Origin: Escherichia coli
GTDB lineage: Bacteria > Pseudomonadota > Gammaproteobacteria > Enterobacterales > Enterobacteriaceae
Assembly (NCBI RefSeq): GCF_003334765.1
Contig: NZ_QOWT01000063.1
Strand: one strand, 5' to 3'
Length of the DNA: 5,656 nucleotides
Positions 1,290-3,673 of the stretch are shown here, piece after piece. The notes below the pieces were generated by a model that searched no databases, was not told where the DNA came from, and worked only from the letters and a program-made list of their open reading frames with translations. Each line of letters starts with the position of its first letter. The first letter of the stretch is position 1. Both the position numbers and the translations under genes were made by a program.

Positions 1290-1337
1290 CTGCTTTTCTC
1301 ACATTTGCAGATTTTAAAAAAGCAAACAAAAACCTCC

Positions 1338-1350
1338 GTACATGATGTAC
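1338..1350. promoter_or_regulatory. 13-bp palindrome GTACATgATGTAC in the promoter region of the 126..1289 gene; candidate operator or activator site
   Basis: Seen in sequence: 6-bp arms (1338-1343 and 1345-1350) around one central base, flanked by the direct repeat AAAACCTCCG at 1329..1338 and 1379..1388. It lies about 50-60 bp upstream of the GTG starts, next to a TAAAAT -10-like hexamer (reverse complement of 1311..1316) that lacks a good -35. The regulatory role is inference. Confidence 0.2.
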
Positions 1351-2480
1351 AGAACAATCTACCAGGTAGTGGCGTCAGAAAACCTCCGGGCCGCCTGCAC
1401 TTTCCGGAATGCGCCGGTTATGAAAAACCGGAAATTCAGTCTCTGTTGTAAGATGTACCCTCTGATACTACGTTTTCTCTGTGTATTTAACTCACTGTAT
1501 TTATTGTCTTTTTAAGCTTGACTGATATTCTCCGGTCATAGTGTGCCGGATACACATCCCGTAAACTTCTCATTTTTATATAAAAATACCTGCACTCTCT
1601 TCAGCGCATCTGTCTCCTTTAAGTAAAAAATGTTTTTACGTATTGCTGTAAATTCATTTTAAATCAGTATATTACCTTGATATTGCTGTCTCCTGGTTTG
1701 ATGCGTAATCGTTCTGCCTTTCTGGATGATTCTGGTGCTTCCGGGTGCATTCTCCTCTGCACATGCAACAGTTCGTCATCGCCACGCTCCCAAAAAGCAT
1801 ATAAAAACGAATCGAATTTGATATTTTTTTCAATCGTTTTTCATAGGAATTTCGTAGGGTATTCTCCGCTATAACCTCCATATTTGCTGTCTTTTTCTTC
1901 ATAAATCGTATGCAATGTAGCCTGTCTGTCAAGACCTCTTCTCTGCTGTTGAGGAGACGATCTCATTTTTGGTCTTTTCCGGGAGAGAGGCTGTCAGATG
2001 AGCGAGCCGGATATACTGTCAGAGGTACACCCCGTAGCAGACCTGTGCTCCCATTTCCGCGATCCGGAACCAACAACACCCTACGGTTAATACCATTTGA
2101 AGCGTCAGGTACTGCAGGAAGTTCCCCCCTGCGCGGACATCGGTTCCTGCCGACATCTCACAATACGGCCAGACTGTCATGCAGTAACACCCGCATGCGG
2201 TCTGCGGTTTTAAGCGCACTCTCCCGTTTTCAGTGCACCGATAATGCGTCATAGTAAGTCTGGGGGAAGTTACGGAATGCCTGTTAAGTGGTGCCGTGGG
2301 TGGAGACAGCTTACTTTTCTACAGCAACTGCAGTCATTCAGGATGATCAGGAGATATTCTGTCAATGTCACGATCCTGCCATTTTCGTACCCGCTAAGAT
2401 ACTTCCGTTACTGATGCTGTCCGCTTTTCACCATTTCATCCTCACTGACAGGCGTTGCGTTTTGGGTCATCACCACAGCT

Positions 2481-2666
2481 TTACGTTTCTCTTTTAACCG
2501 GTAACGCTCTCCTTTGATATTCAGCGTGGTTGAGTGATGCAGCAGTCAATCCAGGAGCGCTGTTGTCCGGCAACCACCATATCAACTTCTTCCCGGGTGT
2601 GGCGGAGAGGTGGTATCCTGGCTGAGTTTCGAAGCGAACCGTTCTTTTTGACGGGCGCATTTTACG
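2481..2666 (-). pseudogene. N-terminal remnant of a P4-type tyrosine integrase (arm-DNA-binding domain); truncated or frameshifted
   Basis: Minus-strand translation KMRPSKRTVRFETQPGYHLSATPGKKLIWW...SLNHAEYQRRALPVKRET-stop resembles the conserved N-terminus of P4-family integrases (K-x-R...F...DGGGLYLxVTPSGSKxWRxRYR...SLxxARxxR). The frame ends at a TAA at 2481..2483. A +1 frame continues with TPVSEDEMVKS (compare integrase DPSExxKAEK) before another stop at 2408..2410. I found no intact catalytic domain (R-H-R-Y motifs) downstream. Confidence 0.35.
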
Positions 2667-3628
2667 TCCGGGCTGAATGTAGTAACGCGGCATGGAACGT
2701 CGGCCCGTATACCATTGCCTTAATCTCCGCAAAGATAACCTCGTCATTCCGGACATTCTCTGCCAGGCATATGTCGATGTAATCCATAAACGATTTCAGC
2801 TTACCCCTTTTGTTGTGGCCAGTCTTTCTGGCTGGCGGTTCAGGGGATGTTTTCTGGTTATCGTGTACCACAAAGCAGGGATATTGCCCCGATAGTCACA
2901 TTTCAGATTGATCGCGGTCTGAAGATGTGGCACTGAGGTAACGTGCTGGTGTCACTGGTATTGCTGAAGTTATGGTTTTTCGGGGTCAGGTGAGCCTGTT
3001 GTGTGTATGCTTTTTGTTCAGGTCAGAGGGGGACTGTGTGGACAGCGGCTTTTGTCTCCGGGCATTCACGCCTGAACGATGAATGCGATTTTCAGCAATA
3101 TTTGTCTTTGTGACACTCTCTGGTTGAGAAGCTAATGCGCGCCCCTGTTTCCACAGAGAATGAGGCTTGCCATCAGCCGAAACATCAGTATTCCACGCCA
3201 TACAGACGGCGCCTGACCATGTGCTGATGCAGGTAAAATGTTTCACTACAACTGTTCGGGTTGCTATGCAACGAAACAGCGATTCTCACGATCTTTAACT
3301 GCAACGTTTTTCCGCCTGAAAGCTGACTGCCTCCTGCTGAGGTGGGAGGCTATGATTCAGTGCGTTTATAGTCTCCGGGGTATGCATGTACCGGAGCATA
3401 CCATTTCTGGTGGATAACAAGCCGGCACATTCAGACTGCAGTGAAGATGGAGGCACCTGGTTGTGAAGAACGTTTCTGCCCGTGGCTGCTTCGCATCATC
3501 AATGGTATTCATACCCGCTCAGAAATGACCGGGTGCTGAAGCCCTCCGTTATCGCGCAGTATAATGACGTATATGATCTGTGGACGAGTGAGCGGCGTGC
3601 CTGATGTACGCCGCTATTACTGTATTTT

Positions 3629-3664
3629 ACCACAGGGCTGGTTTTCTGCTGCCAGCCCTGTGGT
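3629..3664. other. Perfect 13-bp inverted repeat with 10-bp spacer (strong stem-loop); possible atypical terminator or protein-binding/recombination site
   Basis: Seen in sequence: 3629-3641 ACCACAGGGCTGG pairs perfectly with 3652-3664 CCAGCCCTGTGGT. It begins 10 nt beyond the stop (3674..3676) of the 205-aa gene. No canonical U-tract follows on either strand (minus RNA continues AAAAUACAG, plus RNA continues UCUCAG). Confidence 0.45.
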
Positions 3665-3673
3665 TCTCAGACA

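Follow-up and report, generated by a model that had tools for sequence, protein, structure and literature searches.

How does an Escherichia coli chromosome come to hold about 2.4 kb without a recognizable gene? The question is raised by a window of 5,656 nucleotides (contig NZ_QOWT01000063.1 of assembly GCF_003334765.1; all positions count from its first letter), in which the initial annotation, made from the letters of the DNA alone, had noted a long stretch devoid of genuine protein-coding open reading frames (ORFs), partly AT-rich as expected for acquired DNA silenced by H-NS, and had guessed that it hides pseudogenes, non-coding RNAs or a rearrangement scar. By the gene ends of the Prokaryotic Genome Annotation Pipeline (PGAP), the gap runs from 1278 to 3670, between two hypothetical genes encoding proteins of 387 and 205 amino acids (aa). 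Our analysis indicates that this interval, part of the variable portion of a CP4-44-type E. coli island, probably has no function or no more than a regulatory one, and that it is laid out around an ancient, broken insertion sequence (IS) of the IS21 type. As such it is a feature of an already known kind: a 489-bp relic within ~1.9 kb of non-coding DNA in one E. coli island cassette. The longest ORF in the interval is 114 aa, and the longest stop-free stretch (135 codons) compares with 113 ± 23 in composition-matched shuffles, 16% of which reach it; the lack of long ORFs is the chance expectation for random sequence. What is unusual is that a 2.4-kb gene-free gap occurs at all in a bacterial chromosome, where coding density is roughly 88%.

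Distant blastn searches against plasmids found resemblance to mobile DNA only at 2377–2848, which is 86–90% identical in nucleotide sequence to IS21. The bounds of the relic (2360–2848, here segment B; the non-coding DNA to its left and right is segment A and segment C, subdivided in Table 1) were set by alignment to an intact IS21 (L011; labels of this form denote the sequences compared) and by tblastn. Its outer right end, TGTCAATGTCACG, starts at 2360 and matches TGTCAACGCCACG of IS21 (outer end TGTCAAYGYC). Inward of this end, on the minus strand, lie residues 214–265 of IstB (2411–2566; 81% amino-acid identity, one in-frame stop, tblastn E = 7e-24) and residues 41–134 of the 390 residues of IstA (2560–2844; 50% amino-acid and 86% nucleotide identity, a stop and frameshifts, tblastn E = 1e-16). 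The two fragments meet at an internal deletion junction, GTTG at 2562–2565, which stands in place of 1,412 bp of IS21. The left end and the first ~116 nucleotides of istA, encoding residues 1–40, have also been lost, and beyond 2848 neither a left end nor other IS21-like sequence was detected (alignment score 20, against 20.9 ± 3.2 in shuffles). In the 99.9%-identical genome L001, PGAP annotates two pseudogene fragments only in this interval, both on the minus strand, an AAA ATPase at ~2408–2545 and an IS21 transposase at ~2560–2841, and the match to the C terminus of IstB in NCBIfam (E = 3e-8, 33 bits) falls far under the 300-bit cutoff of that family.

Compared with IS21 itself (istA/istB; relatives IS100 and IS640), the relic still has TGTCAAYGYCACG at its right terminus, the 52 C-terminal residues of IstB and residues 41–134 of IstA, but it is a dead 489-bp fragment of an element of ~2.1 kb, without the left inverted repeat, the IstA catalytic core and most of IstB. 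The IstA DDE transposase is thus represented by homology only, its catalytic region having been deleted, and the IstB AAA+ helper ATPase by its C-terminal 52 residues only, while of the terminal inverted repeats beginning 5'-TGT the right is present at 2360 and the left is absent. The relic cannot transpose. The early guess was right as to pseudogenes and a scar, which take the form of this 5'-truncated and internally deleted element, but gained no support as to a non-coding RNA: covariance models from Rfam gave no matches at E ≤ 1 on either strand, and the candidate transcript folds no better than shuffled sequence (z = −0.24). The relic accounts for only ~20% of the interval.

Related copies of the island show how the relic relates to the DNA on either side of it. 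Homology between copies breaks sharply and recurrently at window positions ~136–142 (the 5' end of a GTPase gene) and ~3690 (the 3' end of the 205-aa gene), and between these breakpoints lies a swappable cassette with at least five contents across E. coli islands: the 387-aa gene of the window, a YfjI-family 494-aa gene on the opposite strand (L007, L010), and genes for proteins of 305 aa (L008), 340 aa (L009) and 290 aa (L015). The 387-aa gene and segment A always occur together (2,097 and 2,093 genomes, respectively), while the pair formed by the AlpA-like gene (alpA) and the 205-aa gene is found at 6,515 places in 3,509 genomes. L004 has segment A and the relic up to 2712 in common with the window, then jumps to 3690 and has no segment C-left. 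In L015 the downstream gene is another one and the sequence next to the IS end is unrelated, yet this copy shares with the window both the outer IS end and the 5' truncation (at about IstA residue 40, next to segment C sequence; window 2813–2906 at 84%). Its internal deletion differs, joining IstA 40–56 to IstB 139–262. Segment C-left survives in L015 as fragments only, and segment C-right matches L008, L004 and L015 at 70–84% identity, the differences being scattered substitutions and numerous indels. Because the truncation is shared by L015 and the window, one ancient 5'-truncated IS21-like copy predates these lineages; the alignments further suggest that the relic is eroding independently in each lineage and that its outer end marks a cassette boundary.

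The order of events that we infer begins with an IS21-family element that would have inserted long ago downstream of the alpA/205-aa gene pair and would then have lost its left end together with neighbouring DNA, which would have left the junction at 2848. Lineage-specific internal deletions would have followed, in the window a 1.4-kb deletion closed at GTTG (2562–2565), and the surviving outer end at 2360 may have become the joining point for varied downstream cassettes, here segment A with the 387-aa gene. Segments A and C are non-coding and gather substitutions and frame-breaking indels, and the whole tract travels with the island while homologous recombination reshuffles it between two families of alleles that diverged deeply. 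New insertions would be tolerated because nothing essential lies there, IS100 having entered the relic at least twice.

Those IS100 insertions are independent of each other. One lies at 2712–2716 in the UM146/ST131-type lineage (L003), with a 5-bp duplication CATTG, and the other at ~2810–2816 in numerous genomes that show no further difference from the window; metagenome contigs cover position 2500 at a depth of 54 and position 2800 at a depth of 17, a drop that fits contigs breaking at a repeat present in most copies. We also observed that IS100, itself a member of the IS21 family, thus occupies two sites ~100 bp apart in the old istA fragment (L003:5417–7379; L002:5814–7768) and that both copies share one orientation, opposite to that of the relic. 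IS100 might prefer related IS sequence as its target, or the site might just be permissive.

The island setting bears out the initial view that the DNA is acquired. The window is E. coli chromosomal DNA, with a partial match in 4,499 of 5,426 complete genomes and a match over at least 80% of its length in 1,732; the gene-free interval itself is carried by ~2,090 of them. Copies in complete genomes number ~2,480; Nissle 1917 and UMNK88 have segment C at 99–100% identity, and it also occurs in ST131 strains. In L001 (RefSeq), it belongs to a CP4-44-type island beside tmaR/yeeA, with yeeS, yeeT, cbeA, cbtA, yeeW, a dynamin-family gene and the GTPase gene on one side and the AlpA-like regulator, an inovirus-Gp2-family gene and zinc-ribbon genes on the other. 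The module typical of CP4-type islands (AlpA-like regulator, GTPase, Ag43/dynamin and YeeS/T/CbeA/CbtA/YeeW) is therefore present around the window in that genome, and every annotated gene in the window lies on the minus strand. No integrase or tRNA was found within the 29.6 kb examined, a span that stops short of the right-hand end of the island. This repertoire is shared with CP4-44, CP4-57 and CP4-6 of K-12 (AlpA-like and YeeP/YfjP-type GTPase genes, Ag43 or dynamin-type genes, yeeS/yeeT/cbeA/cbtA/yeeW, and the location next to tmaR/yeeA), and sister copies of CP4-type islands hold YfjI at the position corresponding to the cassette; however, K-12 lacks the cassette formed by the 387-aa gene and segment A. 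Nowhere in the window was a match to CP4-44 of MG1655 detected, so K-12 datasets are uninformative here, and a search of the literature on this island region found nothing relevant. Gene-poor, IS-riddled variable regions are a general phenomenon of enterobacterial pathogenicity and fitness islands, and the region resembles them in its IS relics, nested IS elements (IS100, IS3), pseudogenes, AT-rich patches and mosaic recombination among island paralogues. We see no qualitative difference from such regions; at most, the way in which one relic end bounds cassettes in several lineages sets it apart.

The claim that the interval holds no genuine protein gene was examined with frame conservation, synonymous excess, codon periodicity and homologues, and it withstood these tests as it had ORF length and PGAP annotation. 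In a population sample of 64 metagenome copies, the flanking controls behave as genes: the 205-aa gene has 52 synonymous to 50 nonsynonymous changes (ratio expected 0.22, p = 2e-10) and variable sites of 24/22/54 by codon position, and alpA has 26:17 (0.22–0.23 expected, p ≤ 1e-7) and 7/8/23. The ORF at 2986–3246 has synonymous:nonsynonymous counts of 1:4 and 5:16, together with a new stop, and of 5:11 in the population sample. The ORF at 1672–1932 changes frame between lineages at the T7/T8 run at 1824–1830 and shows 1 synonymous to 6 nonsynonymous changes between the window and L004. Neither these two nor a 50-aa ORF beside IS100 has a family match in PHROGs or NCBIfam. The small ORFs fail all of these coding tests, and we judge them, from these substitution patterns, to be frame-unstable sequences that evolve neutrally and not genes; conserved intact small genes with a codon-usage signal, whose discovery would have overturned the initial annotation, were looked for in the interval and none was found.

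An alternative interpretation is that the 1672–1932 ORF (76–86 aa, WP_024187392) is a real small protein gene, perhaps one that switches between two C-terminal frames by slippage on an A7/A8 run, since each of the five lineages keeps an ORF open there, in either of two frames, and since it is annotated by PGAP in some genomes and shares a mild synonymous excess seen in its frame across the surrounding AT-rich block. We consider this extremely unlikely, because beyond the 1:6 ratio against L004 the ORF itself gives 9:19 in the population sample (p = 0.08; 3:16 in the alternative frame), its variable sites lack periodicity (9/7/11), stop alleles segregate at 1836 and 1768, and a search of 1.84 billion proteins with phmmer found no homologue outside this locus. 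Moreover, the −10 hexamer of the promoter-like sequence at its start ends at 1905, so the likely transcription start lies downstream of the ATG at 1902, and no Shine–Dalgarno match precedes the next ATG.

Searches for traces of larger genes were likewise negative. A six-frame NCBIfam scan of the interval returned the IstB C terminus only, and distant blastn of segments A and C against plasmids and phages gave no match beyond copies of this island. Stop-free segments that lie outside the relic and measure 54 aa or more were concatenated into a phmmer query, which, run against 1.84 billion representative proteins, gave 44 matches, all of 190 aa or less and all artefacts of the same locus, that is, E. 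coli DNA of this locus read through TGA as Trp or frame-hopping calls, and no real protein. These findings bear on the suggestion that segments A and C are ordinary, non-IS protein-coding genes decayed past recognition. Sister cassettes do hold genes at the corresponding position (494-aa YfjI-family, 305-aa and 340-aa), further relics occur in the window (for example, the hha-family pseudogene at 5310–5447), and decay by deletion is demonstrably ongoing; even so, we regard the suggestion as very unlikely, given that YfjI and the proteins of sister cassettes, used as tblastn queries, have no match in the interval (which led us to reject decayed yfjI or sister-cassette genes as its source), that the phmmer search recovered no real protein and that distant blastn matched the IS21 part only. 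In addition, sister cassettes also have gene-free gaps of 1.2–1.4 kb, so long non-coding stretches seem native to the region. Intact ancestral genes, which the initial annotation had proposed to seek in related genomes, were not found there, and ~1.9 kb of the interval shows no trace of an ancestral gene at the DNA or protein level.

The phmmer matches are of some interest in themselves. They comprise dozens of database 'proteins' of 30–190 aa (P0001–P0044) that come from this non-coding locus and are a source of spurious clusters; several carry W at TGA positions and were therefore called with an alternative genetic code. One of them, P0016, predicted at 181 aa, fuses the N-terminal 123 residues of the 387-aa protein (~908–1277, minus strand) to a plus-strand frame of segment A (~2080–2251), which implies an inversion or rearrangement in some genome with breakpoints near 908 and 2080.

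Several observations weigh against reading the interval as largely inert, and most of them concern the AT-rich block at 1440–1990 in segment A. In the metagenome sample its nucleotide diversity (pi) is 0.028, about threefold lower than in the neighbouring segments (0.077–0.086), and it diverges by no more than 5.4% between allele families that are 15–19% apart in the flanks. This low diversity could mark a functional non-coding element rather than a recent recombinational coalescence. One minus-strand frame over the block has a mild synonymous excess (24:42, with a ratio of 0.20 expected; p = 0.0013 before correction for six frames), which gains no support from periodicity (variable sites by codon position, 19/16/25) and which we treat as noise. 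Finally, the label of 'filler' for the ~1.9 kb of segments A and C, for which no origin was identified, rests on negative evidence.

Recombination offers an account of the low diversity that involves no function. Between L021 and L035, distances across segment A-left, the block, segment A-right and the relic are 0, 4.4, 16.5 and 15.2%, respectively, whereas between L021 and L019 they are 14.7, 1.5, 0.3 and 0.6%. Such discordant distances mean that the copies have recombined and are mosaics of two allele families, and a younger coalescence of the block therefore explains its low diversity as well as constraint does. Against L004, the most diverged allele, the block differs by 4.5% with almost no indels, compared with 12–28% in the neighbouring stretches and ~9.5% in the flanking genes; against three closer lineages it differs by 1.3–2.2%, which is no lower than the 1.0–1.7% of the dead IS relic. 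Block sequence was not found outside this cassette, and a 26-mer from it had no match in 100,044 species representatives. A scan of viral contigs was empty.

The block does contain candidate signals. Both hexamers of the sigma-70-like promoter match are invariant in 59 metagenome copies, whose spacer has 3 fixed differences, and the two variants that segregate in the stem of the hairpin at 1591–1608 (1594 A>G and 1597 C>G) each make that stem stronger or longer; by calculation, the chance of such hexamer invariance is ~0.23, and the two observations together are suggestive and not significant. On this basis the block might have its own minus-strand transcription unit, with a promoter at 1932–1905, a start near 1898 and a terminator at 1608–1591, yielding an RNA of ~310 nucleotides that would act as a small regulatory RNA or as a leader attenuating expression of the 387-aa, GTPase and Ag43 genes. 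The promoter-like site (10 of 12 positions) and the terminator-like hairpin are indeed on the same strand and in the right order, the block is low in diversity and almost free of indels, and L004 retains it although most of the 387-aa gene has been lost there. We nevertheless think such a unit unlikely: promoter-like sites in the region do not exceed shuffles (2 found, 3.4 expected) and neither do terminator-like sites, the candidate RNA has no Rfam match and folds no better than shuffles (z = −0.24), hexamer invariance falls short of significance, the block diverges as much as the dead relic in the closer lineages, and recombination can explain the low diversity of a sequence confined to one E. 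coli cassette. A structured RNA for the candidate transcript of ~310–320 nucleotides was rejected on the folding result, the copies being too similar for covariation analysis, and no tRNA or tmRNA was detected in the interval.

As to composition, the AT-richness reported for ~1440–1900 is real (32–41% G+C; 0.34–0.415 in 200-bp steps between 1401 and 2000, against ~0.48–0.565 elsewhere), and the two AT-rich strings quoted for it lie at 1570–1590 and 1650–1676. Matches to TCGATAAATT, the high-affinity H-NS motif from the literature, show no enrichment (3 when up to 2 mismatches are allowed, 4.6 expected), and none lies in the AT-rich tract. We infer that the block most likely carries the promoter, with its 5' leader, that serves the 387-aa gene together with the GTPase and Ag43 genes downstream of it. 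The more elaborate proposal, that it is a conserved cis-regulatory module whose similarity is kept by selection and not by recombination, in which an H-NS/Hha-sensitive promoter and a leader or small RNA of ~310 nucleotides ending at the 1591–1608 hairpin would control the 387-aa, GTPase and Ag43 genes, appears quite unlikely. Should the block regulate the GTPase and Ag43 genes, it would be of modest interest for Ag43 expression and island silencing.

Otherwise, the consequences of regarding the interval as probably non-functional island DNA around an IS21-type relic extend little beyond annotation hygiene. The gap is a true scar of non-coding DNA in which no genes have been overlooked, and the small 'hypothetical proteins' that pipelines at times place here (for example, WP_024187392, WP_001327829 and WP_000349537) are in all likelihood spurious. 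For the phylogeny of the island family the relic makes a useful marker, by virtue of its shared truncation, lineage-specific deletions and two independent IS100 insertions, and it illustrates how an IS end can turn into a fixed boundary for cassette exchange.

Table 1 Features of the window and of the gene-free interval
Feature	Position	Strand	Remarks
387-aa hypothetical gene (PGAP 383-aa)	126–1277	minus	Cassette-specific; co-occurs with the gene-free interval
Segment A	1278–2359		Cassette-specific non-coding DNA, upstream of the 387-aa gene
Segment A-left	1278–1439	minus	Proximal upstream region of the 387-aa gene; many indel polymorphisms; pi 0.077
Palindrome and T-run	1334–1354		Within segment A-left; terminator-like hairpin 1354–1334 on the minus strand
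AT-rich low-diversity block	1440–1990	minus	In segment A; GC 32–45%
Terminator-like hairpin followed by U-run	1591–1608	minus	
ORF	1672–1932	minus	86 aa from TTG, 76 aa from ATG at 1902; called a 79-aa hypothetical protein (WP_024187392, 1667–1902) in some genomes
Sigma-70-like promoter match	1905–1932	minus	TTGACA-16-TACGAT; score 10 of 12
Segment A-right	1991–2359		Non-coding, indel-rich; adjoins the outer end of the IS relic; pi 0.086
Segment B (IS21-family relic)	2360–2848	minus	
ORF of 50 aa beside IS100			Sometimes annotated by PGAP
Segment C	2849–3670		Non-coding; only the right ~300 bp common to sister islands
Segment C-left	2849–3366		Non-coding; includes the ORF at 2986–3246
ORF	2986–3246	minus	At times annotated as a 71-aa hypothetical protein (2989–3201)
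Segment C-right	3367–3670		Diverged 3' flank of the 205-aa gene, shared with sister islands
205-aa hypothetical gene (PGAP 200-aa)	3671–4273	minus	Paired with the AlpA-like gene
AlpA-like excisionase/regulator	4367–4573	minus	PHROGs excisionase/regulator match, 8e-9

Of the two flanking genes, the 205-aa gene is genuine and under purifying selection, as its substitution pattern indicates, and its product has no match in PHROGs or NCBIfam. The 387-aa gene is weakly constrained: synonymous changes number 38 and nonsynonymous ones 74, its variable sites (35/31/40) lack codon periodicity, and it has 3-bp indels that keep the frame. Some copies (L006, L004) carry it with a frameshift or with most of it deleted; its product has no family match in PHROGs or NCBIfam and no relative in 100,044 GTDB species representatives. 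It may be a decaying gene or a very young one.

Length variation is common in segment A, where segregating indels measure 1, 2, 6, 9, 19 and 44 bp. Segment A-left has a 9-bp ATGTACAGA insertion polymorphism and indels of 1–2 bp, and segment A-right has indels of 1, 2, 19 and 44 bp. The ATGTACAGA repeat-unit polymorphism, at 1344–1354, is common and lies beside the palindrome, where it changes the terminator-like hairpin at 1334–1354; a 6-bp CGTTTT duplication at 1470–1477 and the T7/T8 run length at 1824–1830 are common polymorphisms as well. Tandem, direct and inverted repeats in the interval amount to short pairs at chance level only. Among the sister islands, every cassette has a gene-free gap of its own, of ~0.8–1.6 kb by annotation.

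One further copy, L014:3817–5506 (GCA_046629845.1, CP125919.1), corresponds to window 2759–4430 at the same tmaR/yeeA site and is 73–78% identical overall. Its identity is bimodal: fifteen runs of perfect identity (12–83 nucleotides, 590 of 1,078 positions) alternate with runs of equal length at ~51%, with a normal transition/transversion ratio and no indels at 2850–3850, and local inversions do not explain the pattern. The perfect runs were considered as ultra-conserved blocks that might signal function, and this was rejected, since L015, L008 and L004 diverge diffusely, with indels, across the same blocks; as it is absent from three independent lineages, the pattern is peculiar to the L014 assembly and silent on function. 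An unusual short-patch mosaic or an assembly problem is possible.

To the right of alpA, the window ends in a second gene-free stretch of ~1.1 kb (4574–5656). It contains, on the plus strand at 5310–5447, the pseudogene of the hha/ymoA family mentioned above, which is 58–62% identical in amino acids to the Hha of sister islands and is broken by an in-frame stop and a frameshift; the sister islands carry an intact Hha-family gene at the same position.

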